From: an uncultured Clostridia bacterium
GTDB taxonomy: Bacteria > Bacillota > Clostridia > Oscillospirales > CAG-272
Assembly: GCA_944389045.1 (NCBI GenBank)
Contig: CALXKW010000002.1
Location: 1 to 42,101 of the forward strand
Length of the DNA: 42,101 bases
Direction: 5' to 3'
Position 1 is the first letter of the stretch, and every line of letters begins with the position of its first letter. The translations under genes were made by a program, and so were the position numbers. The notes under the pieces are model-generated. The model was given only the letters and a program-made list of their open reading frames with translations, had not been told where the DNA came from and ran no database searches. Below, in pieces: positions 9,244-26,085 of the stretch.

Positions 9244-11244
9244 ATGAAATTGCCATTAGAAAACACTGCGGAAATATTGGATCATCAGATCAGCGGTTTC
9301 CGTATATTTGAATTCCCTTCGGCAACTCCGGCGTTTATCAGTCAAAATTTTTGTGAAATGGTGGGATATTCAAAAGATGAGCTCACCGGGGAACGAGCCA
9401 TCGCTTATTCTTCCTTGATCCATCCCGCAGACCAAGAGATATACGGTCGCTATTTGGCGGGCCTTGCAGCGAACATGCAATCGGCTTCTGCGGAGTACAG
9501 AATCGTCAAAAAGGACGGCTCCGTGATTTCCGTACGGGATACGATGACGCTGAAAAACGATGAAAACGGAAGGACAGTCGGATATTCTGTTTTGACCGAT
9601 ATTACGGCCATAAGAGCCGAGAATGAAAATCTGCGATTCCTCAATGAAACCGTTCCGTGCGGTATGCTCAAATATACGTGTGATAAAAACCCCAAGATCA
9701 CATACATAAATAAGCAGATGCTTGCCATGCTTCGCTTTCCCGAGGTCAAGGAGGGAGAGCTTGACTATTTCGAGCTATACAAGGATAACATCTATCTTAT
9801 GATTCCGATTGAGGAAAGACGGAATTTCGCGCACTATCTGCATCAGGTATATACCAAAGGGGTTCCGATCACCGGGGAAATGACGGTGGTTCGCTGTGAC
9901 GGGACGCGGGCGCGTCTTTACGGATGGGTAACGAAGATTACAGACAGGGATGGGAATGAAGAATTTCAAAGCGTTTGCATGGATGTGACCGAGCGTTATC
10001 AGGAAAGAATGGCAAGTGCTACCGAACACTACCTTAAAGCACTCTCCGATGTTTATGAAAAAATATTTGAATATGATTTCACAAATCACACGGTAAAATA
10101 TGTATCGGGCGGCTCCGCCACCTTCAGCAGAATTCGAAATCTGCCGATGCAGATGGAGGAAGCTACCGAGCAATGGATCAAGAATACTGTGTATAAAGAA
10201 GATCGTAATAGGATGCACGAATTCTTTTCGGGTGTATTTGCACGAAGAATGTCGGAGGGCGGCGGTCGTCCTCCGCAGGTCAAATACCGTGTAAAAAAGA
10301 ACGATTCGATTCTTTGCTATAGCGGTATTTTTTTGAAAATATCTTCAGGTGTTTCGCTTTTCTGCTGCAGAAACGAACAAAATGAGCAGGAGGCCGATTT
10401 TCTCCGTACAGAGAATCTTTCGTTAAGAAACAGAACGGAAAACATTCAGGAAATGATGATGCGGTACAACGACGGCGTCGCCGCCTTTGAGGTAACCGAG
10501 GAGTATGTAACACCTCTCTATGCAAGTGATAACGTATGTGAGTTCTTCGGCGTTACCAAGGAGGAATGGCTGAACCTCATGAAAAAAAGCACCTCGATCA
10601 AGGAATTCGTTTCCCGCTGTACGGTTGATTATGAAAAATTCTCCGAGTTGCTGCGAAACGGAGAGGCGGAATTTACCTATTACGATATTGGCGGTGATAC
10701 CGAGCAGCGTATCAAGGCGATCTGTTCCCAGAAGCACGCCGATGGAGATTGTCCTCGCTATGTTATGCTTTATAAAATGGGTGCCGCCAGGAAGCAGGAG
10801 GACACAACCGACGAGCAGCACAAAGTGTATATTAGAACCTTCGGCTATTTTGATGTGTTCATTGACGATAAGCCTATCGCTTTCCGCAATAAAAAAGCCA
10901 AAGAGCTTCTTGCTTTGCTTGTGGATCGCCGAGGCGGGTATGTTACGAGCGAACAGGCAATCGGCTATCTTTGGGAGAATGAGTCTGCAAACGCCGTCAC
11001 CTTAGCGAGATATCGCAAGGAAGCGCTTCGCTTGAAAAACGCACTTGAAGAATACGGTATCGGATATATCATGGAATCGGTGGACGGAAAACGGCGGATC
11101 ATTCCCGAGTACATCGGCTGTGATCTCTATGACTATCTTTCCGGCAACGAAGAATACGCAGGTCTTTTCAAGGGCAGCTATTTAACCGATTATTCTTGGG
11201 GAGAAATGACACTTAACGGGCTTTTGAACGATAATTTGAATTAA
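9244..11244 (+). CDS. multi-PAS-domain transcriptional regulator with C-terminal SARP/OmpR-type winged-helix DNA-binding domain
   Basis: 666 aa. Has an RBS GGGAGG. Several PAS-like blocks each end in a D(I/V)T motif (e.g. ...GYSVLTDITAIRAE, ...QSVCMDVTERYQ). The C-terminus is YIRTFGYFDVFIDDKPIAFRNKKAKELLALLVDRRGGYVTSEQAIGYLWE. Confidence 0.6.
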   Translation: MKLPLENTAEILDHQISGFRIFEFPSATPAFISQNFCEMVGYSKDELTGERAIAYSSLIHPADQEIYGRYLAGLAANMQSASAEYRIVKKDGSVISVRDTMTLKNDENGRTVGYSVLTDITAIRAENENLRFLNETVPCGMLKYTCDKNPKITYINKQMLAMLRFPEVKEGELDYFELYKDNIYLMIPIEERRNFAHYLHQVYTKGVPITGEMTVVRCDGTRARLYGWVTKITDRDGNEEFQSVCMDVTERYQERMASATEHYLKALSDVYEKIFEYDFTNHTVKYVSGGSATFSRIRNLPMQMEEATEQWIKNTVYKEDRNRMHEFFSGVFARRMSEGGGRPPQVKYRVKKNDSILCYSGIFLKISSGVSLFCCRNEQNEQEADFLRTENLSLRNRTENIQEMMMRYNDGVAAFEVTEEYVTPLYASDNVCEFFGVTKEEWLNLMKKSTSIKEFVSRCTVDYEKFSELLRNGEAEFTYYDIGGDTEQRIKAICSQKHADGDCPRYVMLYKMGAARKQEDTTDEQHKVYIRTFGYFDVFIDDKPIAFRNKKAKELLALLVDRRGGYVTSEQAIGYLWENESANAVTLARYRKEALRLKNALEEYGIGYIMESVDGKRRIIPEYIGCDLYDYLSGNEEYAGLFKGSYLTDYSWGEMTLNGLLNDNLN

Positions 11245-11330: not shown

Positions 11331-11660
11331 ATTTCTTGAAAAGCACTTTTTATGATCTCGTACTATTTTCCCAGTCCAGAGGCTGAAAATTGACGGAACC
11401 TCGCCGCTAGGGCTTCTCGGAGCATGGCGACCCGTAAGCCTCTAATTTTTTCAAGATGTCTTTTCGAGGCGGGCGCCAGGATCTCGGCAGGGAAGTATTG
11501 ATACGGCAGATCTTTCGGAAGATCCAAAACCTGCGTGTACCAACCGGTTTTCCCTCGTCCGCCGCAGAGCTTTCTCGGCGGCGGAAATCCTGCGGTTTCA
11601 AAGCCGCACTTTTTTCACTTTGATAAACCCCATAAACCTACAATAAACGTTTATAACAGA

Positions 11661-11689
11661 TTGACACAAGAGCGAAAACATGATATTAT
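11661..11689 (+). promoter_or_regulatory. near-consensus sigma-A promoter (TTGACA-17 nt-TGaTATTAT) of the small-ORF/giant-ORF operon
   Basis: -35 TTGACA at 11661-11666, a 17-nt spacer, an extended -10 TG at 11681-11682 and TATTAT at 11684-11689. No other gene lies between it and 11843. Confidence 0.6.
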
Positions 11690-11842
11690 AAAATAAATAT
11701 TTATACCTTTTGTTAAAGGAGTGCGAAGAAGAATTTGGTGTAAAAGAAAAGGAATTAAGAGAAAAACTCATAGAAGTATTCGAACTTGACTACTTTTCAT
11801 TTTCCAAGACGGTAGGCTATGCTCAACATTATGGAGACACAT

Positions 11843-12277
11843 ATGGATAATAAAAGCATTCAAATATACGTTGCCCTAAAGCACATGGGCAACGTCACGA
11901 AAAAGGTGAAAGAATATCCTTTTATACTTAACAATACGCCCCGCACGTTTCGGGATCTGATCGAAGAATCGGTAAAGTCTTGTATTGAAGCGTACAAGGC
12001 GCGGGCGAACAATGCGAAAAATCCCGCGCCGCTTAATGACGAGCAGTTTGATGGTATGCGAGAGATCGGCAAGTTTGCTTTCGGCGTTCATTATAATGAA
12101 ATTTCAATTGATGAAACAAAAGCGATTGAAACGGCAATCGAAGCGGCGACGGACGGACTTGTGCGAGTATTCAAAGGAAACGATGAAATAACAGATCTCG
12201 ACGGAGAGATTGATATTACCGAAGGCGATGTCTTTACGTTCGTAAGGCTTACAATGCTTTCAGGCAGAATGTGGTAA
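11843..12277 (+). CDS. hypothetical small protein (144 aa; 152 aa if the ATG at 11819 is used), first gene of the operon
   Basis: Open frame 11819-12277. The ATG at 11843 has GGAG 6 nt upstream. No family was recognised. The stop lies 13 nt before the next ATG. Confidence 0.6.
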   Translation: MDNKSIQIYVALKHMGNVTKKVKEYPFILNNTPRTFRDLIEESVKSCIEAYKARANNAKNPAPLNDEQFDGMREIGKFAFGVHYNEISIDETKAIETAIEAATDGLVRVFKGNDEITDLDGEIDITEGDVFTFVRLTMLSGRMW

Positions 12278-12290
12278 AGGAGGCTTTCCT

Positions 12291-15200
12291 ATGGCAGATA
12301 AGCAGGAAGAAGCTGCACGAAAGGAGGCACTTGCGGCTAAATATGCTGATATCGTGCTCAAGCATAAGGAAAAAGTCAAGGAGAGTTTGAGCGCTGCTCA
12401 ATATGATTTTTTTGAAAATCACGGACAATCTGTTGATACGACAATATATTCCGATCTCGTGGCGGCTATGCGAAATCCGAACACAATACCGTCGGAATAT
12501 ATATCAAAAAAGTTGGGATGGCTTTTTGGTATGGCAATTCCGAGCCGTGAAAAGGATGTTGTTTTGTATTTTGCCGATAAGCTGCAAGAATATCCTTACT
12601 CGGATTCTTACAGTAGAAGATCATTCAGAGCGAAAGGAAACGGCGCATATGCCTCCAAGCTTGCGTATATCATTCGCCAGTATGGCTCTGTTCATATGAA
12701 TATGATCGATGAGCCACTTGAAAAGATTCTGAATAAAGAACTACCCGAAGAAGCCCAAGCTTTCCTCGATGAATATGCTTGGCGCGGATGCGGATATACG
12801 GGTTGGCAGGTAGCATATGCGCTTGACCATAACGACAGCAAGATCGAAGATGCCGTTCGTCGCATTCTGACCGAAGAAAACGGCTCGGGAATGATGACAA
12901 ATGAGCTTGTGCGCGGTGTGGTTTTCAGTCACAGATCTGATTTTCACGAGTTGCTCGGGAAGCTACTCCTTGCGGCTAGACTTCAAGAGGGACTCCGACA
13001 GGTCATCTGCGAAAACGCCGATTACGGGACAAAAGCAGGCTTTCTCACGATTCTGAAAGTAATTGCCGACAATAATTTAATCCGCTTTTCATCCGTAAAA
13101 AGGGCGGTTGGGACTTGGCTCGGCATATTGGCCGAAGAATCCCGCGACCTTGAGCGTGTCAGCGAAAAGAGCGTTCGCCTTATTATCGATTGCTTGGAAA
13201 AAAAGAGCGTACGTGAGGAGTGTCTTGCAACCGAAGATGCGATGATGATATATATCGCTCTTTGGAGTTACGGATTCGACGACATTGACGATGCCATTCA
13301 GAAAATTGTTCATATAGCAGATAACGGCTCTACGCATCAGCTACTTGTATCGGGATATTTCGTGGCAAATCTCGATCTGCCGTATATTTCGAATCAGATT
13401 GCCAAGATTGTGTTGAAGCAACATTACGATCAAGACGAGGTTCTTGCGGTATGGCTTCCTTGCTTTATGTCCACAAGAGTGTCTGCTTTGTGGAACGCCG
13501 TAAGAAACGATCAGCCTATCAAATACAATACTTGGTTTGATAGCAAAGCAGAGATACACGAACATTATCAGCTTATTAAAAACCTCTATTCTGCTTTTTC
13601 CGGCAAGACAAAAACCTTCTCGCCGTGTGTTTTTCCGTGGCATGAAGCCAAAATCGCAAAAAATGCTTTTGCAGAAATTCTTTGTACCTTGGCGGCTCTG
13701 TCGGGTGATAATGATAAGATCGATGAAGCTTGCGTCCTTATCAAAGAATGCAATTCCAATCAACGGCAGTTTTATTTTTCAGCCTTGCTTCGCGAGCCCC
13801 GGACCGCGCTTCAGCACAAAACCGTGCTTGAAGGTCTTGTAGACAGAGAAACATACACCCGCAAATCTGCTTACGATATCGTATCTAAATTGAAACTGTC
13901 GGGCGAGGAGTATCGTTCTATTGAGGAATATTTGCGCTTTAAGGGTGCGGATATCCGTAAATATGTCATAGAGTTATTGCTTAAGCAAAGCGATTCCGAG
14001 CTTACCGCATGCATAGGTAGACTCCTTGAAAATAATAAAGAAGAGGTTCGCCTTGGCGGACTTGATATGCTTTTGCAGCTTAAAAAGGATGCAAAACGCA
14101 GTAAAATCACGGATTCCTTTACGAGCATTTTATCCGAAAGAGCAAAAGCAGATAATCTTCCTTCAAAAGAGAAGATCTTGCTTGATTTTCTTGTTTCCAC
14201 GGAAGCGGAAACGAAAGCGGAAGAAATTGCACTATTCTCCGCAGAGGACAAATATCTGCCCACTGAATTTGAGGCGGAGTATATAGAGCTCTGTGCAAAA
14301 ACCTTTGCGGAATATTTTCCCGAGTCTAGATTGCCCGAACTGATTAGAGGCAAAAAAGGAGGATTTAATCTCTTTGGAAAGATCAAGTCAGCGTTAACCG
14401 ATAATGTTGTTTGCAAGTCCTCGATTGTTGCCGCTATGGATCTGATGTCGCTTTCAAAATTCATTGAAGCACATAAAACCGATTCGTTCACCTGCTCAAA
14501 TGGTGAGGCAATGCTGATCGGTAATATTCAGTATTCTCATCAGTTCATTGATAAAGACGGAAAATTACCTCTTTGGGAACTGTGGCAGGAGTGGATTAAA
14601 ACGAACGGCATTACGAATAAGCGTCTTGTAAGCGCGCTTGTACTGTACCGCGCATATAAACAAAAAACGCGCTTTTCCGAAGCTTGTGTTGATTCGGTCA
14701 GAACCGTGTTTGGCACGGGCTTTGAATACGGCGAGGAGCTTCCGCACTCTGCTATTATGTATATGGTTCTCAATCATATGCTCGGATGCTTACCAAAGGA
14801 AGAACTCACTCAGCTTGCATCTGCACTTGCGATATGGTTTGTCCAATGTGTACCCGATGATATGGTGATGATTCATGCTCCGACACAGCAAAAATTGCCC
14901 GCTCAATTTGAGATGGCACATTTGCTTGCACACGAACAGTTACACCTTGTTTACGGATGGCTGAACTGTAAAAATACTGCCGATCTCAAAAACACCTTCC
15001 CATTAGCCGTTGCCTCTGCTGAACGTTGCGTGGTGGCTTTCAAAAAGATTCCCAAAGAAGAAACGAAAATCGGCAATTCTTATTACTACTTCGGCAACTC
15101 GCGCACCCGTGTTTTGCACGAGCCGTATGAGAGTATGTATGGCTCATACAAGCCACTTGTAGGTGTAAATGCATATTTGTTTGCGGCTTATCAAGGTATT

Positions 15201-17525
15201 ATTACAGAGGCTCAGTTGTTTGAGTTCTTACTTGATGCCGATAATCTGCGCGAATCGATGGAGGCTGTGACAGCAGTCGCTACAACCTGTTACGAAAAGG
15301 GTAAACAAATTTCGGGGCGCGATTCCTACAAGGGTATCCGTAACGCTCATAAGGTTAAAGAATTCCTTGGCAAAAAGGACGCACCGAGTGCGGAGGATAT
15401 GAAGCTCATCGAGTATGTATCTCACATTTATGAAACCGTTATCCCCGTAGTTCTTGCTTCCGAGCTTAGCCGTGGTGATAGCCCAACAGCCTACACCAAA
15501 GGTATTTATGGTATCGCACGTATTTACGGCGCAAAGTATCTCTCGGAGATATTGTCTGCTATGGGTAACGACACTCTTGACAGAACGACATATTGCGGAT
15601 GGGGTGAAGCAAGCGACCGCAAGAGTTCGCTTTCCTATCTTCTTTCCGTATGTATTCCTGCGGACAATGATTCTGTTGATACACTTCGAGCGGCTCTTTG
15701 CGGCAAAAAGATCACAACAAAACGTTTGATCGAGGCGGCGCTATTCTCTCCCGAATGGATTCCGATCATTGGAAAATATCTTGAGATCGAGTCCTTTGAA
15801 TCAGTGTGCTATTACTTTATGGCGCATATGAACGAAAAGTTCGACGAGAAGCGCAAGGCTATGATTGCAAGATTTACACCTCTTTCAGGAGATGAGTTGA
15901 ATCTCGGAGCGTTTGACGTAAATTGGTTCCGTTCCGCATACGATTCCATCGGCGAAAAGGAATTTGATCTGATCTACGATGCTGCAAAGTATATTTCCGA
16001 CGGCGCGAAGCATTCCCGCGCGAGAAAGTATGCAGATGCGACACTTGGCAAATTCGATGTTGACGAAACCGAAAAGACGATTTCCGACAAGCGAAACAAA
16101 GATCTTTTGATGGCATATGCGCTCATACCGCTTAAGGGCGACGATGATATTTGTAGGCGTTATCTCTATATCCAAAGATTCCGTAAGGAAAGCAAGCAGT
16201 TCGGTTCACAGCGTGTAGCGAGTGAAGGCAAAGCGGTAGAAATGGCACTTACCAACCTTGCTATTAACGCGGGATATTCCGATACGATGCGCCTGACTCT
16301 GCGCATGGAGACCAAGGTGATCGACGACAGCCGCGCACTTCTTGAAGAACAGATCATCGAGGGCGTGTCCTTTAAGATCACGCTTGATGAAAACGGCAAG
16401 GCAACACTTGTTTGTGCGAAGGACGGCAAGCAGTTAAAGAGTGTTCCTGCAAAGTTGAAAAAGAATGAAAGTGTAGTGGCTCTTACAGATATGGTCAAGA
16501 CGCTTACCGAGCAGTACAGACGTACACGAGTGATGCTTGAAAGAGCAATGGAAGATTGCACGACCTTTACGTTTGGCGAGCTTTCGGCTCTGTCGGCACA
16601 TCCCGTGGTTTATCCGATGCTCAAAAACCTCGTGCTTGTCAGCCGTGACGCCGTTGGCTTCCTTGCCGACGGAGGTCTTGTAAACGACGGTGGCGAAATA
16701 CAGAAGCTTAACGATAGCGCAGAAATTAAGATTGCCCATCCGTTCGATCTGTATAGCAAGGGCTGTTGGAGAAATTATCAGAAGTATCTCTTTGTAAACA
16801 AGATCGCACAGCCGTTCCGTCAAGTATTCCGCGAACTGTATATCAAAACCGCAGAGGAAATGGATTTGTTCCACTCCCTCAGATACGCCGGAAATCAGAT
16901 ACAGCCTGCAAAAACTGTCGGTGCGCTAAAGAGCCGCCGTTGGGTAGCGGATATTGAAGACGGTCTGCAAAAGGTTTATTACAAAGAGAACATCGTAGCG
17001 CAGATCTATGCACTTGCGGATTGGTTCTCACCTGCGGACATTGAAGCACCCACGCTTGAATGGGTATGCTTCACCAATCGAAAGACGGGTAAAGAACTCA
17101 AGATAGCGGACATCCCCGATATTGTATTCTCGGAAGTTATGCGTGACGTTGATCTTGCTGTCAGTGTAGCGCACGCGGGCGGTGTCGATCCCGAAACAAG
17201 CCACTCTACAATGGAAATGCGCGCTGCAATCCTTTCCTTTGTTCTGCCTATGTTCCGCATAAACAACGTCAAGGTAGAAGGACGTCACGCCATAGTGGAT
17301 GGCAAGCTCGCAGAGTATTCGATCCATCTCGGAAGCGGTGTTGTGCATCAGTTCGGCGGAGCTATGATCCCTGTCTTGCCCATACATTCCCAGCATAGAG
17401 GAAAGATATTCATGCCTTTCGTGGATGACGACCCCAAGACAGCCGAGATCATATCTAAAGTCCTTCTGTTCGCAGAGGACGATAAGATCAAGGATCCGAT
17501 GATTCTGTCGAATATCGGTAAGTAA
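12291..17525 (+). CDS. 1744-aa helical-repeat protein with C-terminal DUF4132-type (MolR/YehI-like) region; function unknown
   Basis: Uninterrupted 5.2-kb ORF with AAGGAGG 7 nt upstream. The C-terminal ~400 aa contain strings I associate with DUF4132: LERAMEDC, HPVVYPMLKNLVLV, IKIAHPFDLY, IAQPFRQVFRELY, FSEVMRDVDLAVSVAHAGG and HLGSGVVH. The rest looks like HEAT/ARM-type helical repeats. The family assignment is from memory, not a search. Confidence 0.8.
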   Translation: MADKQEEAARKEALAAKYADIVLKHKEKVKESLSAAQYDFFENHGQSVDTTIYSDLVAAMRNPNTIPSEYISKKLGWLFGMAIPSREKDVVLYFADKLQEYPYSDSYSRRSFRAKGNGAYASKLAYIIRQYGSVHMNMIDEPLEKILNKELPEEAQAFLDEYAWRGCGYTGWQVAYALDHNDSKIEDAVRRILTEENGSGMMTNELVRGVVFSHRSDFHELLGKLLLAARLQEGLRQVICENADYGTKAGFLTILKVIADNNLIRFSSVKRAVGTWLGILAEESRDLERVSEKSVRLIIDCLEKKSVREECLATEDAMMIYIALWSYGFDDIDDAIQKIVHIADNGSTHQLLVSGYFVANLDLPYISNQIAKIVLKQHYDQDEVLAVWLPCFMSTRVSALWNAVRNDQPIKYNTWFDSKAEIHEHYQLIKNLYSAFSGKTKTFSPCVFPWHEAKIAKNAFAEILCTLAALSGDNDKIDEACVLIKECNSNQRQFYFSALLREPRTALQHKTVLEGLVDRETYTRKSAYDIVSKLKLSGEEYRSIEEYLRFKGADIRKYVIELLLKQSDSELTACIGRLLENNKEEVRLGGLDMLLQLKKDAKRSKITDSFTSILSERAKADNLPSKEKILLDFLVSTEAETKAEEIALFSAEDKYLPTEFEAEYIELCAKTFAEYFPESRLPELIRGKKGGFNLFGKIKSALTDNVVCKSSIVAAMDLMSLSKFIEAHKTDSFTCSNGEAMLIGNIQYSHQFIDKDGKLPLWELWQEWIKTNGITNKRLVSALVLYRAYKQKTRFSEACVDSVRTVFGTGFEYGEELPHSAIMYMVLNHMLGCLPKEELTQLASALAIWFVQCVPDDMVMIHAPTQQKLPAQFEMAHLLAHEQLHLVYGWLNCKNTADLKNTFPLAVASAERCVVAFKKIPKEETKIGNSYYYFGNSRTRVLHEPYESMYGSYKPLVGVNAYLFAAYQGIITEAQLFEFLLDADNLRESMEAVTAVATTCYEKGKQISGRDSYKGIRNAHKVKEFLGKKDAPSAEDMKLIEYVSHIYETVIPVVLASELSRGDSPTAYTKGIYGIARIYGAKYLSEILSAMGNDTLDRTTYCGWGEASDRKSSLSYLLSVCIPADNDSVDTLRAALCGKKITTKRLIEAALFSPEWIPIIGKYLEIESFESVCYYFMAHMNEKFDEKRKAMIARFTPLSGDELNLGAFDVNWFRSAYDSIGEKEFDLIYDAAKYISDGAKHSRARKYADATLGKFDVDETEKTISDKRNKDLLMAYALIPLKGDDDICRRYLYIQRFRKESKQFGSQRVASEGKAVEMALTNLAINAGYSDTMRLTLRMETKVIDDSRALLEEQIIEGVSFKITLDENGKATLVCAKDGKQLKSVPAKLKKNESVVALTDMVKTLTEQYRRTRVMLERAMEDCTTFTFGELSALSAHPVVYPMLKNLVLVSRDAVGFLADGGLVNDGGEIQKLNDSAEIKIAHPFDLYSKGCWRNYQKYLFVNKIAQPFRQVFRELYIKTAEEMDLFHSLRYAGNQIQPAKTVGALKSRRWVADIEDGLQKVYYKENIVAQIYALADWFSPADIEAPTLEWVCFTNRKTGKELKIADIPDIVFSEVMRDVDLAVSVAHAGGVDPETSHSTMEMRAAILSFVLPMFRINNVKVEGRHAIVDGKLAEYSIHLGSGVVHQFGGAMIPVLPIHSQHRGKIFMPFVDDDPKTAEIISKVLLFAEDDKIKDPMILSNIGK

Positions 17526-17541
17526 TCGAAAGAACCTCGTG

Positions 17542-17712
17542 CCAAAATGGCATGAAGATAATATTGTTCTTAAAACGCAAGCGCCGATGATAAACGACTA
17601 CCTATACGAAAAACGCTTCTCCCTACGGGGAAACAAGCGTATCTTACGTAAAATCTACACAACCACACGCGAGAAATGCGAGGAAAAACTCAAGGGGGCT
17701 GATAGCGGATAA
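17542..17712 (+). pseudogene. fragment resembling the N-terminal arm/AP2-like DNA-binding domain of a tyrosine integrase
   Basis: Start-less frame PKWHEDNIVLKTQAPMINDYLYEKRFSLRGNKRILRKIYTTTREKCEEKLKGADSG*. Another frame continues as ADKKAEITAEKAKAK. This matches the '...G-K/R-R...-T-xx-E-xx-EKLK' pattern of integrase N-termini. No catalytic domain follows. Confidence 0.35.
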
Positions 17713-17828: not shown

Positions 17829-19181
17829 TTATTTGACCGGATAGTATCGGTTTATATATTCAGCAATACTGTAATTGCTATCATGCCTACACTCTTCAAT
17901 CATCTCTTTTGTCAGCCAACGTCGTTTAGAAAGGTCTAATACGGCATATTCTCTGCAACACGAGCAAAGGGTTGTTTCATAGATGTAGAAGAAAAACTCT
18001 TTTGGCAATTTGACATTTTGATCCTTAACGCCCAAAATGTGCATCCCAATGCCGTGCCAATCGGATTTGTCCTTGTAATCGGCACGTATTTGATAAAGTT
18101 CATCCAATAATAATTGCTTGTCTTCTGCTTTATAGTTGCACAGCAGCATTTCTATAGCATACGTCATATTGGTTCTGTCGGCAAGTAACTCAAACGCATA
18201 TGCCCGCACTTCTTCACTTTGACAATTAATCAGAACCCCGAAAGCATTTTCACGCAATTTTTTATGAGACGATTTGGAATACTCAATAATTGCATTGTGA
18301 GAAAAAGGAAAGTTATCATTTCTGTAAGCAAAGGTAGAAAGCAATTCTGCTTTTACATCAAGATCGGATTCAGCAAGGATCTCTTGTGCCAATTTTAGTT
18401 TTTCTTCTGCGACTGCATGTCTGCCAAATCGAACTCGAGAGGAAGGAGATAATTTTCCGGTCGAAGATATTTCATCTTTAATATTCTCAGCACTTGGTGC
18501 AGCAATGGGCTTTCGCACGATCTGCTTCATCTCTTTCTGTGCTTTTAAGTAGTTTTCGTAAAAACTGAGAAGGTTTTGCGATTTCTTAGATTCGAAACGC
18601 AAGATCGAAAGAAATTTTTTACATCCCCCATGCTCCATGCAGGAACAAAACCAATCAAAATCACTTCCATTGTAGTGAGGATTCTCTCGGAACAAACGTC
18701 CCATATCCGATGCTATGCGTAAAATCCCGTCTGTTTCTTCCATTGAGCTGATTGCCAAGCAAATCCGCTCAAAGTTGTCACGCTCAAAATCATAACTAAC
18801 GAATCTACGTTTGCTGATTAGGGTTGCTAAAAGCTTATCATATTTTTTCTGCAATGCCTTTTTTGCATTAGTATTCCCGTTTTCCGCGAAACAGCAGAGC
18901 AAATTGCAAAAATGCGAAAATGTCCAATCCGAGCGACGAGGAAGACGTTCAAAAGCGTCAATTATCGGAATAACAAAGTATTGCTCGTCATTGAAATACG
19001 TGGTTAATTCATAAACGAAATAAGCGCGAGTTCCTTCACACTGTGTGTCATATGACAAATTGTGTAAGCATCCCCACAAAACAATTTCTTTATATTTTGA
19101 AATGTTTTTGGCGTTTTTCAGTACTAAAACACATCTTCCCAAGCCTTGCTGCATATAACGTTTGAAATCTCTTTTGTTCAA
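17829..19181 (-). CDS. hypothetical 450-aa helical-repeat protein with Cys-containing C-terminus
   Basis: Long ORF in very AT-rich DNA. TTG start with AGGAGG (19188-19193) 6 nt upstream. HEAT-like segments (e.g. EEVRAYAFELLADRTN). The C-terminus is ETTLCSCCREYAV...ECRHD. No family was recognised. Confidence 0.75.
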   Translation of the reverse strand: MNKRDFKRYMQQGLGRCVLVLKNAKNISKYKEIVLWGCLHNLSYDTQCEGTRAYFVYELTTYFNDEQYFVIPIIDAFERLPRRSDWTFSHFCNLLCCFAENGNTNAKKALQKKYDKLLATLISKRRFVSYDFERDNFERICLAISSMEETDGILRIASDMGRLFRENPHYNGSDFDWFCSCMEHGGCKKFLSILRFESKKSQNLLSFYENYLKAQKEMKQIVRKPIAAPSAENIKDEISSTGKLSPSSRVRFGRHAVAEEKLKLAQEILAESDLDVKAELLSTFAYRNDNFPFSHNAIIEYSKSSHKKLRENAFGVLINCQSEEVRAYAFELLADRTNMTYAIEMLLCNYKAEDKQLLLDELYQIRADYKDKSDWHGIGMHILGVKDQNVKLPKEFFFYIYETTLCSCCREYAVLDLSKRRWLTKEMIEECRHDSNYSIAEYINRYYPVK

Positions 19182-19282: not shown

Positions 19283-19327
19283 TGGTCGGAGTGACAGGAT
19301 TCGAACCTGCGGCATCGAAGTCCCAAA
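19283..19327 (-). pseudogene. 3' half of a tRNA-Pro(UGG) gene (anticodon loop to CCA); candidate att-site remnant
   Basis: The reverse complement reads TTTGGGACTTCGATGCCGCAGGTTCGAATCCTGTCACTCCGACCA. It matches 37 of 45 positions of the corresponding part of the intact tRNA-Pro at 21547-21622. The T-stem differences are compensatory (GCAGG/CCTGT versus GCACG/CGTGT). No 5' half is present. Confidence 0.8.
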
Positions 19328-19773
19328 CAGAGAAAAGGAGGTTTTTTGCCTCATTTTCGTGCCTTTTTGGTGCTTTTCAGTCCGAAATCGATGCTTTCGG
19401 GTGCTCCCCGTCGCACTGCTTCCACGTAGTCCGAAGCTGTAAGTGATCAAAAATGTGGTCAGGCTTATAATCCCATATCACTATCACCACCTCACACGAG
19501 CCGAAGGCTCCAAGCCAAGGTGGCTTTTTTTGCTATTCTCATTATACCATCAAACTGCGAATAATTCAAGTACCTTCGCTACTAAAAATTTGCACACAGT
19601 AATCAAAGAAAACCGCTCCGCCAAAACCGGATTCACCATAGGAGTAATTGTAGTAAAGAGAGTATGCTGAGAAATGCTTTCTCAGCAGATTCTTGACTTG
19701 AAAATTTAGAATTATTTATTGAAACTCCATTGATGTTTTGTCGGATTTAGTATATAATATTTCCGACAAGGTG

Positions 19774-20150
19774 ATGTCAAGAAACGAACCATTTCTATAA
19801 ACCAAAGAAGAAAGGATCCGCAACTCGCCCAAGGGTATGTTTTTTTTGACCTCAGATTTTACGGATTTAGTGTTCTCGGATGCTGCAAACAGAGCTTTTT
19901 TTCGCCTTGAAGAAGCCGGGCTAATTCGCAGGATCCTTTTCTGCGTTTATGAATATCTCGATTATAATGAATTTTTGGACGAATATGTCGAGCCTTCTCC
20001 CGATATGATAGCGCATGCATTGGCAAAAAATTCGGATGGACTATCGTTGCCTGCGGCGATACCGCACTGAAATTGCTCGGTATTTCTACACAAGTTCCTG
20101 CCGTTTGGCTCTATGTCAGCGACGGAACAAACGCAGCAGCGTGGATTTAA
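19774..20150 (+). pseudogene. AbiEi/DUF6088-type antitoxin gene, disrupted by at least two frameshifts
   Basis: Promoter TTGATG-17-TATAAT at 19730-19758. The pieces are MSRNEPFL*, then KEERIRNSPKGMFFLTSDFTDL...EEAGLIRRI...PSPDMIAHALAKNS, then (shifted) GWTIVACGDTALKLLGISTQVPAVWLYVSDG. This follows the order of conserved blocks in the family. Confidence 0.5.
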
Positions 20151-20172
20151 AAGAAATCTGCGGGGGAGCAAA

Positions 20173-20307
20173 ATGAGAAATGTAGTAACCATAGCGGCGC
20201 GCGACCGAGAGGTACTGTTCCGTAATACGGCCGCCAAGATGGGTATGAGTGAGGCAATAATCGAAAAAGGTGAAACTGATTTCCCCATTGAAAGAAGACT
20301 GAGGTGA
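20173..20307 (+). pseudogene. N-terminal stub of an AbiEii-type nucleotidyltransferase toxin
   Basis: MRNVVTIAARDREVLFRNTAAKMGMSEAIIEKG... resembles the AbiEii N-terminus (..lF..ta.kmgi...iiEKD..). The frame ends after about 44 codons instead of about 250-300. Confidence 0.4.
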
Positions 20308-20313
20308 GATAGA

Positions 20314-20520
20314 ATGTATCAATACGAATATGAAACAGTAAGCTGTGAATTGGGCGGTTGGGGCTTTGGCTCCGGTAACATTTATGAGATCGATGACTAC
20401 CGTTCAGTCATTGATAAGAGAGCAAAAGAAGGCTGGCGCTTTGTTGGCTATATTCCTACAAGGCAGCGCGGAACCGGACATGTCCAGAAACTTGATTTGA
20501 TTTTCGAAAAAGAGATTTGA
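20314..20520 (+). CDS. DUF4177-like small protein (68 aa)
   Basis: MYQYEYETVSCELGG......KRAKEGWRFVGYIP.....LDLIFEKE fits the Y-EY...G....eGW.lv....f.r pattern of DUF4177. A GAGGTGA RBS lies upstream. Confidence 0.6.
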   Translation: MYQYEYETVSCELGGWGFGSGNIYEIDDYRSVIDKRAKEGWRFVGYIPTRQRGTGHVQKLDLIFEKEI

Positions 20521-20779
20521 GGGGGTGGCCATTATAAATTGGGTGGTACGGATCGAATCACCTATCCCGATGACTTCGTAAAACATGCATATGAGGAAGG
20601 TCACGATTATGAAAGCCTAAAACGCGACTTGATCTATGGCTTTACTCGTATTGGCGGGGTCGATTCTGAGGCAGTATTCTACATACGATTCTTTATAGTC
20701 TAACACCTTGATTTCCTCGAAATCATTTTTCTCTAAAAAGTCGAATATAGAGTAGGGCAAGTTGTGACGTACACTTTTC

Positions 20780-21079
20780 GTGATGTTGTGCCTCCCGATT
20801 GACAGCGATGTGGTGATCGACGTTGTCAATCTGAAACTATCGGTCGAGATGTTCGGCTCCTTTGGCACGGCGGACGGTGTCTGTCCCGCCTGTCACATGA
20901 ACAAGCTCCATTGGATCTCGGTGCTTCTTCCCGACGCGCCCGAGGATGTGGTGAAGTTCCTTGTTAACGTGATTTTTGAGGCAATGAAGGAAATACGGAA
21001 ACGCAGAAAAGACTGCAGTATAACGCAAAAGGGTGGTTCTCATGAGCCATCCTTTTCTTCTGCCGATAAGACCATCTAA
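20780..21079 (+). pseudogene. 5'-truncated YjbR/MmcQ-family gene
   Basis: ...VVNLKLSVEMFGSFGTADGVCPACHMNKLHWISVLLPDAPEDVVKFLVNVIFEA parallels the '..LK..pe....L......P..HlNK.HW.tV.ldg..pd' core of YjbR. About 45 N-terminal residues are missing, and a stop lies just upstream. Confidence 0.45.
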
Positions 21080-21180
21080 TTTGTTTGCCGTTAACGGCAC
21101 TTTTATTAGATGAATGCAGAAGTTATCTGCTTGATAACAGATTAAACGCTGGGCCTGTGCCTTCTGTGATATATTGTGTG

Positions 21181-21354
21181 TTAACAAAAGCCAGGGAGGT
21201 AGGCACAAGGGCAAAAATAATCCGTCCTCTTCAAAGTGATTGTTCTGCATATAAATTCTTCATTTAGCCGTAACACCCATTGATTGTCAAGAATAAACTG
21301 TTCGCGGGCGTCCGCTGTCAGCGGAGCGAGGATTACTTTTGTATTTTTCATCAT
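21181..21354 (-). pseudogene. possible N-terminal stub of a GNAT acetyltransferase
   Basis: MMKNTKVILAPLTADAREQFILDNQ... looks like a GNAT N-terminus. It then degenerates and stops after 57 codons. No convincing RBS. Confidence 0.3.
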
Positions 21355-21367
21355 GAAAATCTCTTGA

Positions 21368-21406
21368 AATATAAAAATACTCGGCCATTACAAAGTAATG
21401 ACCGAG
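21368..21406 (-). terminator. rho-independent terminator on the minus strand, about 140 nt downstream of tRNA-Pro
   Basis: The minus strand reads CUCGGUCAUUAC-uuug-GUAAUGGCCGAG followed by UAUUUUUAUAUUU. The single non-Watson-Crick pair is G.U on the minus strand but C/A on the plus strand, which favours minus-strand function. Confidence 0.6.
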
Positions 21407-21508
21407 CGCACTCGACACTTGATCCGGTATGCGGTCTGCAAATCCTTTCGGATTTACGATCCCCAAGCGTTACGACGCCCCACCTCCGGTGAGAACTGTT
21501 TCATTTTC

Positions 21509-21542
21509 GCTGATTTGACCGTAAAATAACGGTCAAATCAGC
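21509..21542 (-). other. perfect 13-bp hairpin abutting the 3' end of tRNA-Pro
   Basis: GCTGATTTGACCG-taaaataa-CGGTCAAATCAGC. No U-run follows on either strand, so this is not a canonical terminator. Confidence 0.5.
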
Positions 21543-21546
21543 ATTC

Positions 21547-21622
21547 TGGTCGGAGTGACACGATTCGAACGTGCGACCTGATGGTCCCAAACCACCCGCT
21601 CTACCAACTGAGCCACACCCCG
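21547..21622 (-). tRNA. tRNA-Pro (anticodon UGG), CCA encoded
   Basis: The reverse complement folds by hand into a cloverleaf: CGGGGTG-TG-GCTC-AGTTGGTA-GAGC-G-GGTGG-TTTGGGA-CCATC-AGGTC-GCACG-TTCGAAT-CGTGT-CACTCCG-A-CCA. Confidence 0.9.
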
Positions 21623-22253: not shown

Positions 22254-22413
22254 AAAAGACAAAAATGGCGGATTGTCTGCCGGCTCTGCCGGCAGTCGGA
22301 AAACGCCGCTATTTCTTGGCCGAGAAGGGCCGGCAGTATTCCGCTGAGGACTGGCTTCGCTGATAAAATGCGTCTCTCTGCGGATACGAGTACAGAAAGG
22401 CTTGAACCGTTTT

Positions 22414-25400
22414 ATGAAAAAGAATGTTTCCTCTGAAGGATTTTGGAGTAAAATCGGCGCCGCGCTGAAAAATGCATTTTTGAAGGCGGCGGGGTGGATA
22501 AAGGGACTTTTTCAGAAGCTCTCGACCCGCAGTCTGATCTTCATTGCCGCCGGGGTCTTCCTGCTTTTGGCGGTCTTTGTGACGGTGCTCTTCCTGCTGC
22601 TCCGCACGCCGGAAAAGCCGAGCGACTCCTCTTCCTCCCCGCCGGATACCGAAGCGCCGTCGACTACCGAAACGGAGTTTTTGGTCACTCCCATCGAAGG
22701 AGTCGAAGTCGAGGTCAGCGCGGACGGCCGGAGCATTACGCTGTATGTGCTGGAGGGCACCGTGTCGGTCGATTTTGCTTCGATGGTGACGGCCAAGGAG
22801 AGCTGGACAGTGATGGACGACGACAAAAAGATTCTGGAGGACGGCGTTCTGCCGGTTACCGAAAACGGCGTCAGCTATACGGTATCCTATGGCCCCTCCC
22901 GTCTGCCCTATCGCGTCACCATTCGGTATATCGAATTCTATACGGTCACTTTTGAGGGACTCGACGGCTATACGCTCTCGGTGAAACGGGGGGGAAAGGC
23001 CGCCTCTCCGGCCGATCTGCCCGAGAAGACCGGCTACCGTTTCGACGGCTGGGATTTTGATTTCGACAGTCCGATTACGGAAAATACATATGTGAAAGCC
23101 AAGTGGACGCCGAACCGCTATGTAATCACCTTCGACGCCGCCGGCGGCAGCGTGTCGCCCGGAACGCTTGAAGTGACCTTCGGCGCCTCCGTGACGCTTC
23201 CCGAGCCGAGCAAGACCGGATTTACCTTTATCGGGTGGTATGCCGGCGATAGGCCGGTCGGCTCCGGAACCTGGGAAATTGCCGGGGATGTGACGCTGGT
23301 CGCCGCCTGGGACAATCACGATTACCGCATTACCTATGACGCCGCCGGCGGTTATGTGGATAAGACCGTTCAGGGCGTGTCCTTCGGCGAGGCCTTTACG
23401 CCTCCCACGCCCGAGCGCGTCGGATATACCTTTTTGGGCTGGTTTGTGGGCGAAACGCCGCTCGATTCCTCGTCATACGCCTATACCACCGACGTCGTCT
23501 GTGTGGCCAGATGGGCGGAGAACCGCTATACGGTTCACTATGTGACCAACGGCGGGGAAGAGATTGCGAGCGAGGCCCTTCTGTTCTCGGAGATCGGAAA
23601 AAGGACTCCCGTGCGCCCCGGCTATACCTTCGGCGGCTGGTACTATGACCCGTCGCTGAGCGAGACCAACATTGTGGTCGGTGAAGACGGTGCGGTGACC
23701 GCTTATGCCTGGTGGCAGGAGGAGAGCCGAACCTCGGACTTTACCTTCTCCCTTGAAGAAAAGGGTGCGGTGATTACCGGATACCGCGGCACGAAGAGTC
23801 TCTGTGTGGTGCCCTCCTTTATCGGAGGCCTGCCGGTGGTGGCGGTGGGCGAGGCCGCTTTTGAAAACGCGGCGACTTTAGTACAGATCGTTCTGCCCGA
23901 AACGGTGACCGAACTCGGTGCCGGCGCTTTTGCCGGATGCAGCCGCCTTGAGAAGTTCAACCCGATTGAGAACACCGCCGACAGCCGGCCGGTGGATCTC
24001 GAGGGCTTTTCTTCGATCGGTGCCGGCGCTTTCCGCGGTACGGCTTTCGTCTCGGTGACGATTCCGGACGATATGCTCTCGCTTCCCGATGAGCTTTTTG
24101 CCGAATGCACCAAGCTTCGGCAGGTGAATTTGAACCGGGTGACCGAACTTGGCGCCGGAGTCTTTGCCGGCTGTACCGCGCTTGATTCGGTGACGATTCC
24201 CGACGGGGCCACCTCGCTCGGAGCGGATCTCTTCCGCGGCTGTACCGGACTTTTGGATCTGTCGATCCCCTCTACGGTGAGCGAAATCGGCGCCGGCGCT
24301 TTCGCGGGCTGTACCTCTCTGAAGGCGATTCTTCTTCCGCGCGGGCTGTCCTCTTTGGAAGATGAGCTGTTCGCGGGATGCTCCGCTCTCGTCACAATCG
24401 GCAATCTGACCTCCGACAACACCGCGCTTCGTACCATCGGTAAGTATGTGTTTGCCGACTGCGTGAAGCTTTCTGCCATCGAGCTTCCGAATAATCTTGC
24501 GTCTATCGGAGAAGGGGCGTTCTCCGGCTGTACCGCGCTTGTCTCGATGACGATCCCCGCGTCGGTAACCCTTCTGGAAGACTCGCTCTTCAGCGGCTGC
24601 TCGCGTCTTCAGACCTTGATTCTTCGCGGGGTGGTCACGCGCATCGGCGACAATGCTTTCAGCGGATGCCGGCTTCTCTCCGAGCTGATTCTGAGCGAAG
24701 GCCTGGAGAGCATCGGCGAAGGGGCGTTTCTGCACTGTCTGAGCCTGACGCGCATGACGCTTCCCGAAAGTCTTACCTCGATCGGAAAAGACGCTTTCTC
24801 GGGCTGCGTGAAATTGCAGGCGGTGAACATCCCCCTCGGCGTGACAGAAATTCCCGCCGGTGTGTTCGATGGCTGCGGTGCGCTTGAGACGCTGACCTGG
24901 CACGACGGCGTCACCGCGGTCGGAGACGGAGCCTTCGCGGGCTGTTCGCTGCTGTCGCTTCCGTTTATGCCCGCCTCGCTTCAGAGAATCGGGGTGGAGG
25001 CCTTCCGTGGCTGCTACGACCTGCAGACGCTTACGTTGGAAACAGCGCTGGTCTCGATCGGCAGCCGGGCGTTTGCCGACTGCATTTCGCTGACCCGGGT
25101 TTTGTTCAAGGGCTCTGCCGAACAGTGGAAGGGCGCGGTGGCTGACGACGCTTTTGAGGGCTGTACCAGCCTTGGGGACAACATCATTGTGACACCGGGT
25201 ATTGTCGATGACCTGGCCCCTTGGCTTCTTGCGAATCCCTCGTCCGGAGCGCTCTGGGCGATCGACAATACGCTGCCGATGAACGGAAAGCGTCCTGCTG
25301 CCGTTCTCGCTTTCGCGCCCGAGAATCTTTTCTTCAACAATCTGATTCTTACCGATCCCGAAAATGCCGATCCGGTAACCGGCGCCTCGGTCAATCCCGC

Positions 25401-26085
25401 TTATACATGGGAGATGGTCGTGGCGGGGCAGACCCTGACCATCTCCTCGTTTGAGGTTTACAATTTCGGCGGGTACGGTTATGTGATTCTCGATCTGGGC
25501 GAAGAGTTTATTCCGGCCGCCGGGGTCGCCCGCTACGCGGCCTCGCTGACCATTTATGGCTCCGCCGGAGAGCCTCTCTATCAGGCGGAGCTTGGCGAGT
25601 GCATCTTCCGCAATGCCGTCCTCTCTCTGACCGAGGATCCCTCCCGCGAGGAGAGCGATCCCCTTGGCGGCTTTACACTTTCCTCCGGTCCCTCGCTCGG
25701 TATGAGTTACGGAGCCGAGAATCTTTTTGACAGCAATCTCGATACGCGCTTTTTCTCTCAGGACCGCACGCCGATTGTGATCTCCTTTGAAGAAAAGGTT
25801 CGCCTTACGTCCTATTCGTTTATCACTTCGCCTGCGGGAGCCTGTTATCCCGAAGCGCTTCCTTCCGGCTGGACTCTTTACGGCGGTGCGGAGAACGAGG
25901 ACGGTGAATGGGAATGGGTGGAGGTCAGTAGAGTGGAATCCGCCGGGTTTTCCGCCGAAAGCTGGGTGGAACACAACATTAATGTGGAACACGATACCGC
26001 TTATCGGCAGTACATGCTGGTCTTCGACGGGGAAGGGCCGCTCACGCTTTCCGAAATCATGTTTTTTGGAAATGCCGTTGCCTGA
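22414..26085 (+). CDS. membrane-anchored surface protein: N-terminal TM helix, Listeria-Bacteroides (Flg_new) repeats, BspA-type leucine-rich repeats, C-terminal discoidin/F5-8 type C-like domain
   Basis: ATG at 22414, 13 nt after AGAAAGG. The track's TTG at 22402 is too close to the RBS. TM segment LIFIAAGVFLLLAVFVTVLFLLL. Four G(Y/F)TFxGW repeats. More than 12 repeats of the xxIGxxAFxGCxxLxxIxLP type. The C-terminus is AENLFDSNLDTRFFS...WTLYGGAENEDGEWEWVEV. Confidence 0.85.
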   Translation: MKKNVSSEGFWSKIGAALKNAFLKAAGWIKGLFQKLSTRSLIFIAAGVFLLLAVFVTVLFLLLRTPEKPSDSSSSPPDTEAPSTTETEFLVTPIEGVEVEVSADGRSITLYVLEGTVSVDFASMVTAKESWTVMDDDKKILEDGVLPVTENGVSYTVSYGPSRLPYRVTIRYIEFYTVTFEGLDGYTLSVKRGGKAASPADLPEKTGYRFDGWDFDFDSPITENTYVKAKWTPNRYVITFDAAGGSVSPGTLEVTFGASVTLPEPSKTGFTFIGWYAGDRPVGSGTWEIAGDVTLVAAWDNHDYRITYDAAGGYVDKTVQGVSFGEAFTPPTPERVGYTFLGWFVGETPLDSSSYAYTTDVVCVARWAENRYTVHYVTNGGEEIASEALLFSEIGKRTPVRPGYTFGGWYYDPSLSETNIVVGEDGAVTAYAWWQEESRTSDFTFSLEEKGAVITGYRGTKSLCVVPSFIGGLPVVAVGEAAFENAATLVQIVLPETVTELGAGAFAGCSRLEKFNPIENTADSRPVDLEGFSSIGAGAFRGTAFVSVTIPDDMLSLPDELFAECTKLRQVNLNRVTELGAGVFAGCTALDSVTIPDGATSLGADLFRGCTGLLDLSIPSTVSEIGAGAFAGCTSLKAILLPRGLSSLEDELFAGCSALVTIGNLTSDNTALRTIGKYVFADCVKLSAIELPNNLASIGEGAFSGCTALVSMTIPASVTLLEDSLFSGCSRLQTLILRGVVTRIGDNAFSGCRLLSELILSEGLESIGEGAFLHCLSLTRMTLPESLTSIGKDAFSGCVKLQAVNIPLGVTEIPAGVFDGCGALETLTWHDGVTAVGDGAFAGCSLLSLPFMPASLQRIGVEAFRGCYDLQTLTLETALVSIGSRAFADCISLTRVLFKGSAEQWKGAVADDAFEGCTSLGDNIIVTPGIVDDLAPWLLANPSSGALWAIDNTLPMNGKRPAAVLAFAPENLFFNNLILTDPENADPVTGASVNPAYTWEMVVAGQTLTISSFEVYNFGGYGYVILDLGEEFIPAAGVARYAASLTIYGSAGEPLYQAELGECIFRNAVLSLTEDPSREESDPLGGFTLSSGPSLGMSYGAENLFDSNLDTRFFSQDRTPIVISFEEKVRLTSYSFITSPAGACYPEALPSGWTLYGGAENEDGEWEWVEVSRVESAGFSAESWVEHNINVEHDTAYRQYMLVFDGEGPLTLSEIMFFGNAVA

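Follow-up and report, generated by a model that had tools for sequence, protein, structure and literature searches.

The window analysed here is the whole of a 42,101-nucleotide (nt) stretch of contig CALXKW010000002.1 from an uncultured Clostridia bacterium of the CAG-272 lineage. Within it, a small gene is followed on the same strand by a 5.2-kb gene encoding a giant protein, and the question that this locus raises is what the two proteins do together. A preliminary description, made from the sequence alone, took the pair for an undescribed system carried as defence-like cargo. Our analysis points elsewhere. A studied counterpart exists in Deinococcus radiodurans (DR_A0165/DR_A0166), and the reading that we prefer, tentatively and with slightly less than even confidence, is that the small protein and the giant would form an obligate cytoplasmic complex, in which a loop and the tail of the small subunit dock on the C-terminal module of the giant and which acts in a damage or oxidative-stress response. 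The genes and the encoded domains are as follows.

11843 to 12277, forward strand: small subunit, 144 amino acids (aa), with GGAG 6 nt before the ATG; this is also the gene call on an identical public contig
12277 to 12283, forward strand: AAGGAGG ribosome-binding site, overlapping the stop codon of the small gene, 7 nt before the ATG of the giant
12291 to 17525, forward strand: giant subunit, an open reading frame (ORF) of 1744 aa (197 kDa), predicted soluble
12402 to 16307, forward strand: DUF5724 region of the giant (aa 38-1339; Pfam E 4.8e-287)
16425 to 16943, forward strand: DUF4132 domain (aa 1379-1551; Pfam E 7.7e-43)
16944 to 17516, forward strand: conserved linker (FSEVMRDVDL...) and DUF7737 (aa 1641-1742; DUF7737 Pfam E 5.5e-35)

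The genes at 11843-12277 and 12291-17525 make up one operon, which has a strong promoter of its own. The small ORF is readable from 11819 (11819-12277, 152 aa); its start was placed at 11843 because of the GGAG, because its homologues have 144-145 aa and because the identical contig has the gene called at 11843-12277. The small gene ends with a TAA at 12275-12277 and the giant begins with an ATG at 12291, and the two-gene unit, the 13-nt gap and the AAGGAGG-led 5.2-kb ORF of the preliminary description were all confirmed at these coordinates. Because the AAGGAGG overlaps the stop codon of the small gene, the arrangement suggests that the two genes may be coupled in translation.

Synteny of the small gene with the giant had been expected, and it held everywhere it could be checked. 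Retrieval with the small gene gave 5 loci on metagenome or genome contigs and a further 80 when 185,579 species genomes were scanned, and the giant came next in all of those having downstream DNA (83/83). The genome scan used a subset of the alignment, which biases this census towards small proteins with Gly-Arg-Met-Trp tails. When the giant served as the query, the small gene likewise lay upstream of it in Oscillospiraceae, Lachnospiraceae, Bacteroides finegoldii, Chondrinema, Fulvitalea and three Deinococcus species. By ORF coordinates, the two genes elsewhere appear to overlap by up to about 130 nt or stand up to about 130 nt apart, and a single insertion of 1.8 kb separates them in L049 (loci are cited by our labels); the overlaps may be artefacts because the ORF finder takes the most upstream start codon. 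No further gene recurs in more than 6 of the 88 loci, and the unit therefore consists of exactly two genes. Its distribution is patchy, the exact tail motif being present in 271/185,579 species genomes, and its neighbourhoods are varied and in some cases mobile, which agrees with the earlier view of an accessory rather than a universal core unit.

Degraded copies were also seen. The giant is split into at least two ORFs in L098/L099, L014, L034, L057, L079 and L084, and one split, into 1144 + 685 aa, is the same in two independent assemblies; split giants are either real pseudogenes or split genes, or assembly errors. In the metagenome contigs L100/L101 (4172-10524), BrxA, BrxB, BrxC and a HATPase_c_4 fragment directly precede what is left of the giant, a C-terminal piece of 507 aa. 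About 1200 of its codons and the small gene are missing there, and Hsp20 lies downstream, as in intact Lachnospiraceae loci, so that it looks as if insertion of a BREX island destroyed the pair.

The giant belongs to a family that is catalogued but barely described. A total of 730 homologues of about 1740 aa share its three-domain architecture and, if named at all, are called only 'DUF4132' or 'DUF5724 domain-containing protein', and no family was found for it in NCBIfam, PHROGs or PADLOC. Its assignment to DUF4132 in the preliminary description was correct. The five C-terminal motifs on which that assignment had been based are all present, but only the first three lie inside DUF4132; FSEVMRDVDLAVSVAH lies in the linker and HLGSGVVH in DUF7737. 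The giant has no Walker A motif or P-loop and no transmembrane helix (highest 19-residue hydropathy 1.37 in a hydropathy scan), as had been noted by eye, and because it has no transmembrane helix we place it in the cytoplasm. The DUF5724 region is probably a helical-repeat scaffold, with weak HEAT-type matches at aa 504-615; when five segments of the giant were searched against Pfam at E <= 10, other matches were at noise level, DNA_alkylation at E 0.12 being an example. Searches of the Protein Data Bank (PDB) by sequence and profile with the giant and with its C-terminal 450 aa gave nothing significant (best E 0.38, a phage gp87 fragment), and the C-terminal profile, when used to look for homologues, brought up only fragments of this family.

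Conservation along the giant is uneven. In an alignment of 58 homologous giants with that of the window, conservation peaks at aa 201-350 and 1050-1350, is maximal at aa 1500-1744 and is low in the variable stretch at aa 600-1050. The linker and DUF7737 are the most conserved part, with 27 invariant positions in aa 1601-1650. Among 42 aligned sequences (41 homologous giants and the window's own), the last 450 residues contain more than 80 invariant positions, many of them His, Ser, Asp, Glu, Arg or Gln and none Cys.

The small protein had been called an orphan. This is true of the family databases, since it has no family in Pfam, NCBIfam, PHROGs or PADLOC, but not of sequence space. It has 320 close homologues, and a profile search of 1.84 billion representatives assigned at least 687 clusters (50% identity) to the family, typically 139 aa long. 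Structure prediction with AlphaFold2 on a 121-sequence alignment gave a confident model with a predicted local distance difference test (pLDDT) score of 84.7 and a predicted template modelling (pTM) score of 0.73; from the single sequence the pLDDT was 42. The order of elements in the model is strand, strand, long helix, two-helix insert, three strands and a disordered tail, and the protein is accordingly predicted to have a beta-grasp (ubiquitin-like) core with a helical insert. Foldseek matches to this model, a comparison proposed in the preliminary description, were weak (E >= 0.002; nothing below E 0.001), the best being E 0.01 in the PDB and E 0.002 in BFVD, and nearly all of the top matches in both were ubiquitin-like: Ras-binding domains of PI3K and plexin, SUMO, NEDD8, ubiquitin and viral ubiquitins. 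The small-family profile found nothing among PDB sequences. The D. radiodurans homologue had independently been modelled as MoaD/MPT-synthase-like (PMC9650054).

That homologue is DR_A0165, which matches the small-family profile with 99.75% probability (E 2.8e-27). DR_A0166 has the same DUF5724 + DUF4132 + DUF7737 architecture as the giant, and the DR_A0165/DR_A0166 operon is, by these matches, a member of the same family. Much of what can be said about function comes from this operon, which DdrO represses and which radiation, mitomycin C and peroxide induce. DR_A0165, 'putatively in operon with drA0166', is among the genes of the DdrO map and has a radiation/desiccation response motif (RDRM) at -83 (PMC8533742). 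Depletion of DdrO brings strong up-regulation, induction is lost in an irrE mutant, and the DR_A0166 protein rises after mitomycin C in an IrrE-dependent manner (PMC8533742). Gamma rays and H2O2 both induce DR_A0165 (= SEP068184), and survival in H2O2 goes up when the gene is deleted and down again on complementation (PMC9650054). The two papers conflict on the RDRM: PMC9650054 reports none, and PMC8533742 lists GGTTATGCTATTTACATAAC at -83. We confirmed GGTTATGCTATTTACATAAC in the sequence 83 nt upstream of DR_A0165 (L102). The judgement that DR_A0165 is Deinococcus-specific and lacks an upstream RDRM (PMC9650054) is contradicted by the present data on both counts. Just downstream, DR_A0167 has a DUF99/Endo_dU (PF01949) match; it was seen in D. 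radiodurans only among the three Deinococcus loci.

Short forms of the giant indicate which part of it the small protein works with. Fulvitalea and Chondrinema encode DUF4132-DUF7737 proteins of 865-869 aa without DUF5724, which the profile of the long giants covers only over positions 1336-1724, and each is preceded by a small-family member of about 128 aa (probability 97.3%; hidden Markov model E 3e-16 and 7e-14). The small gene accompanies the DUF4132-linker-DUF7737 module and not the long N-terminal region. We infer that the small protein works with this module because the short forms lacking DUF5724 keep the partner and Escherichia coli YehI, which has no DUF7737, is without one. The operon in the window is one copy of a module found conserved in several bacterial phyla. 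Both forms can occur in one organism. On plasmid pFA1 of Fulvitalea axinellae (L107/L108, 400.8-410.0 kb) two pairs lie head to head: in one, a small gene of 157 aa (tail GSTY) goes with a long giant of 1704 aa, and in the other a small gene of 128 aa (tail VGG) goes with a short DUF4132-DUF7737 protein of 869 aa. The long and the short pair types are both present in Chondrinema litorale too, on different plasmids.

The C-terminal tail of the small protein is constrained. In the window the protein ends ...FVRLTMLSG-RMW, without a free C-terminal Gly-Gly. Gly141 is the sole invariant column of the 121-sequence alignment, and in 133 of 139 representatives exactly three residues follow the conserved Gly before the stop, being Arg in 83%, Met, Leu or Ile in 86% and Trp in 85%. 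Such a constraint on the three-residue tail would fit a docking motif better than a disposable propeptide. A conserved loop in the insert, GKFAFG, is a further feature of the small protein. Other lineages end differently: in three Deinococcus species the small protein ends ...LLLLRLTALAGG-stop (Gly-Gly), and the two Bacteroidota partners of short forms (Fulvitalea and Chondrinema) end ...VGG-stop. The Gly-Gly-ending tails resemble the LVLRLRGG of ubiquitin. An ADWFSPADIE motif is common to giants paired with Trp-type tails and is lacking in those paired with Gly-Gly tails; its apparent tracking of the tail type is suggestive, but it is confounded by phylogeny.

These tails raise the alternative that the small protein is a ubiquitin-like modifier or carrier without E1 or E2 enzymes, and that DUF4132-DUF7737 is a new activating, ligating or processing enzyme for the conserved Gly. 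We consider this unlikely, at roughly one chance among five. The Gly would be free in the Gly-Gly versions and would be exposed in the window's protein by cutting off Arg-Met-Trp; the activated protein would next be joined to targets or loaded with cargo. The predicted beta-grasp fold, the invariance of the Gly as the family's only such column, and the Gly-Gly-stop of the three Deinococcus species and the two short-form partners speak for it, as do the enzyme-like invariant polar residues in the C-terminal module and the 157 proteins that tagged DR_A0165 pulled down (PMC9650054). However, Pfam searches of the giant, even at E <= 10, gave no ThiF/E1, E2 or JAB domain and no other domain of a peptidase or adenylating kind, there is no third conserved gene to supply one, and the absence of an invariant cysteine from the giant makes a thioester cascade unlikely. 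Typical propeptides do not show the strong conservation of length and sequence seen in the three residues that follow the Gly, and the overlapping interactors of N- and C-terminally tagged DR_A0165 (PMC9650054) do not fit C-terminal conjugation. Were a modifier role true, it would mean a new way, free of E1, E2 and JAB proteins, to activate, process or ligate a ubiquitin-fold protein, and a new bacterial ubiquitin-like signalling route, deployed in Deinococcus in the DNA-damage and oxidative-stress response. It would also give DUF4132 its first biochemical role, with the DUF7737-less and partnerless MolR and YehI of E. coli remaining a separate case.

A second alternative drawn from the same fold is a sulfur-carrier or molybdenum-cofactor pair, that is, a MoaD/ThiS-like carrier acting with a MolR-like protein in molybdate or cofactor metabolism. 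E. coli MolR, a DUF4132 protein, owes its name historically to a molybdate-utilisation phenotype (cited in PMC8533742), the published DR_A0165 model is MoaD-like (PMC9650054), the Gly-Gly end of the Deinococcus proteins resembles that of sulfur carriers, and modA and thiS lie within 10 kb of the pair in D. radiodurans. Set against this, the modA/thi neighbourhood was not seen in D. ficus or D. psychrotolerans, and expression of moeA and moeB was unchanged (PMC8533742). No E1-like MoeB/ThiF, MoaE or ThiG partner is conserved nearby, there is no profile signal to ThiS, and most members end in Gly-Arg-Met-Trp, from which no thiocarboxylate is possible without processing. We regard this reading as very improbable.

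The reading that we prefer, a docked complex active in stress, can be set out as follows. The two proteins would be made together and would form an obligate cytoplasmic complex, the small subunit docking non-covalently on the DUF4132-DUF7737 module. The likely contacts would be the GKFAFG insert loop and the C-terminal tail, which here is Gly-Arg-Met-Trp-COOH. The complex would act in the response to DNA or oxidative damage, and would more likely modulate or scaffold other proteins or nucleic acid than catalyse a known reaction. In this organism the module would be accessory, stably fixed in the species, and apparently driven by a strong promoter without a recognisable damage-response operator. 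We favour a stress-response complex over anti-phage defence because the Deinococcus counterpart is switched on by DNA damage.

Several observations weigh against this reading. The stress link comes from one distant organism (about 42% identity), and the window contains neither a LexA box nor an RDRM. The structural matches of the small protein are weak (best E 0.01 in the PDB and 0.002 in BFVD), and profile comparison of the small family with ubiquitin and ThiS gave no signal; the fold assignment therefore rests on the predicted structure only. There are two exceptions to the pairing, a giant without the small gene in one IMG/VR contig (L097) and an Acetobacter plasmid copy. Finally, the more than 80 invariant and often polar positions at the C-terminus of the giant look more like those of an enzyme than of a docking platform.

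How the pair is expressed in the window was examined through its upstream region, in which four features can be read.

11591 to 11608, forward strand: terminator-like hairpin, 7-bp stem with 4 GC pairs, followed by the T-run CTTTTTTCAC
11613 to 11722, forward strand: promoter block, conserved with other copies of the pair
11661 to 11689, forward strand: sigma-70-type promoter, TTGACA (11661-11666), 17-nt spacer and TGaTATTAT (extended -10)
11690 to 11842, forward strand: leader of about 150 nt, between the promoter and the small gene

The hairpin terminates the gene of the PAS regulator upstream, and the unit has its 5' limit there. The near-consensus extended -10 promoter at 11661-11689 read exactly as first described and was the top sigma-70-type match within 11-19.5 kb (11/12 positions and the extended TG); promoter-like sites as a class were not enriched in that interval (11 found versus 14.4 expected). 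The block 11613-11722 has a counterpart of about 76-82% identity in front of the pair in L001, L014 and L015, where the -35 and -10 elements are kept, and the promoter therefore travels with the genes. A 12-nt palindrome in the block (ATAAACGTTTAT, 11644-11655) was ruled out as a conserved operator, not being kept in other copies. Control of the pair by a LexA/Cheo box or an RDRM was likewise dropped: the box (GAAC-N4-GTTC) was absent from 84 upstream regions (this window and 83 related), and no RDRM-like site was found in the window. An Rfam scan of the window returned two tRNAs only and no known RNA family in the leader. In L001 and L014 the position of the leader holds a 61-aa HTH_17 gene. 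A 46-codon ORF with a TTG start (11710-11850, forward strand) runs through the leader and reaches 8 nt into the small gene; no ribosome-binding site is obvious for it, and that part of the leader is not conserved.

The genomic setting bears on the remaining alternative, an anti-phage or anti-plasmid defence (conflict) system moving as mobile cargo, as the preliminary description had proposed. Upstream of the pair lie fatty-acid synthesis genes, acpS and the gene of a PAS-domain regulator; downstream are a 450-aa ORF without a family, degraded fragments (DUF6088 and DUF4177), tRNA-Pro and a BspA-type leucine-rich-repeat protein. The lower G+C content that had been noted was borne out, at 42-48% over 11-18 kb against 50-55% over 1-9 kb and 60% at 23-25 kb. 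The integrase stub reported directly downstream (57 aa, 17539-17712) had no Pfam match. The tRNA att remnant is in part what it was taken for. The 3' 24 nt of tRNA-Pro(TGG) (21547-21622) recur at 19283-19306 with one mismatch, and this repeat is an att-type scar of an integrated element, but the two copies (19283-19306 and 21547-21570, reverse strand) bracket about 2.3 kb of degraded DNA (19283-21570) with DUF6088/AbiEi-like and DUF4177 fragments. The island thus stands beside the pair, which lies outside it, and not around it. Across four same-species assemblies the giants are 98-100% identical and the whole arrangement is the same.

Elsewhere, a transposon-like setting surrounds the copy in L001-L004, with TnpV, Y1 transposase, HTH_17, S24 peptidase and resolvase genes. 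Other copies lie between housekeeping genes, such as L005 (L19 and fucosidase genes upstream, ABC transporter downstream), a copy next to tsf and an MscS-family channel gene, and copies near ffh and rpsP. The 134 immediate neighbours fell into 142 Pfam families, the largest groups being HSP20 (5) and ResIII (4), and restriction genes occurred 2-3 times each, three of them from related Coprococcus genomes. The pair is on 1-3 of 2.9 million viral contigs, and plasmid copies are mostly on large, non-mobilizable replicons. Against PADLOC-DB 2.0 the giant gave only HEAT-ARM_XIII at E 0.015, which is not significant, and the small protein gave no match.

A defence role would agree with the patchy distribution, the G+C content below that of the flanks, the transposon-like setting of L001-L004, the few type I or type IV restriction genes among neighbours, the partial BREX cluster abutting the truncated giant in L100/L101, and the frequent splitting or truncation of copies. 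Nevertheless, we hold it improbable, less so than the molybdenum reading and more so than a modifier. Searches turned up no effector domain of the nuclease, NTPase, protease, TIR, SIR2 or pore type, and no PADLOC model matched significantly. The pair is not consistently placed in defence islands: defence genes were a handful among the 134 neighbours, and they cluster phylogenetically, in related genomes of Coprococcus. Housekeeping genes flank many of the loci, which are conserved across the species of one genus, the pair is nearly absent from viral contigs, the tRNA-linked island in the window excludes it, and in Deinococcus the member of the family is induced by DNA damage and alters tolerance to peroxide. 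We conclude that the pair is an accessory, occasionally mobile and dispensable module without specific support for defence.

Three neighbours of the pair are worth describing in their own right. The PAS regulator (666 aa, 9244-11244, forward strand) combines a PAS domain at its N-terminus with a C-terminal region that has no Pfam name and by eye resembles DNA-binding regulators; it is low in G+C like the pair, adjoins it in every same-species contig and is unlinked to it elsewhere. The 450-aa ORF (17829-19181, reverse strand) is convergent with the giant, lies in DNA of 39% G+C and has no Pfam, NCBIfam or PADLOC family. It is called in all same-species contigs (441-493 aa), is not next to the pair in other loci and is weakly similar to giant aa 551-602, a HEAT-like match (E 0.008). 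Both were considered as third components and ruled out, as neither recurs in other loci. Farther downstream, the BspA-type leucine-rich-repeat/Listeria-Bacteroides-repeat surface protein (1227 aa, 22402-26085, forward strand) has 60% G+C, a composition that contrasts strongly with its surroundings.

What was known already is a catalogued but uncharacterised giant family with a studied Deinococcus member. In our literature searches no paper named DUF5724 or DUF7737, none explained how DUF4132 works, and the eLife 2020 conflict-systems paper yielded nothing. Relative to the papers searched, three points appear to be new: that the small partner is a widespread family with a predicted ubiquitin fold, that it is strictly linked to DUF4132-DUF7737 proteins, and that it exists in Gly-Gly and Gly-Arg-Met-Trp forms. 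A large DUF4132 branch is thereby tied to an obligate small partner annotated in no database and predicted to have a ubiquitin fold, and hundreds of gut and rumen Clostridial genomes are linked to an experimentally tractable, damage-induced operon of D. radiodurans. If the proposed complex is real, it would count as a new accessory module for stress responses, and a common one in the gut microbiome.

Among known systems, the comparison first offered was with MolR (YehH) and YehI of E. coli, which lie beside yehLMPQ. It holds for DUF4132, the only domain shared with YehI (26% identity over about 260 aa, BLASTP E 2e-8), and not beyond it: YehI has neither the DUF5724 nor the DUF7737 of the window's giant, and 'MolR/YehI-like' is therefore true at the domain level only. 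YehI and the giant are alike in having a long N-terminal region without another recognised domain. YehK was ruled out as a counterpart of the small protein, to which it is unrelated, and no ORF of the small family was found in the E. coli yeh region. The YehI neighbour yehF carries a WGR domain, and neither protein of the window matched PF05406. Genes of the yehLMPQ type (MoxR AAA+, DUF5682, von Willebrand factor A (vWA) and SWIM) were absent from the conserved neighbours and from the top families of the 134 neighbours. E. coli MolR has been described as a member of the LexA regulon (PMC8533742), which, by analogy, may echo the damage link seen in Deinococcus.

The small protein can be compared with ThiS/MoaD and with the ubiquitin-like proteins of Bil/Bub-type systems. 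The likeness lies in the predicted beta-grasp fold, in a last strand and tail that resemble the LVLRLRGG of ubiquitin, and in the Gly-Gly end of some lineages. The differences are that the small protein is twice the size, because of a helical insert of about 40 residues, that most members end in Gly-Arg-Met-Trp, and that the pair comes without E1, E2 or deubiquitinase genes. There is no MoeB/ThiF-family E1-like adenylating enzyme in the operon.

The closest known system is DR_A0165/DR_A0166. The Deinococcus operon has an RDRM and is damage-induced, whereas the pair in the window has a strong sigma-70-type promoter and neither an RDRM nor a LexA box. The Deinococcus small protein ends in Gly-Gly and that of the window in Gly-Arg-Met-Trp, and the ADWFSPADIE motif occurs in giants of the Trp type and not in those of the Gly-Gly type such as Deinococcus. 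The gene order is nonetheless the same, with the small gene upstream on the same strand and a gap of 2 nt there against 13 nt here, and the C-terminal 450 aa of the two giants are about 42% identical.

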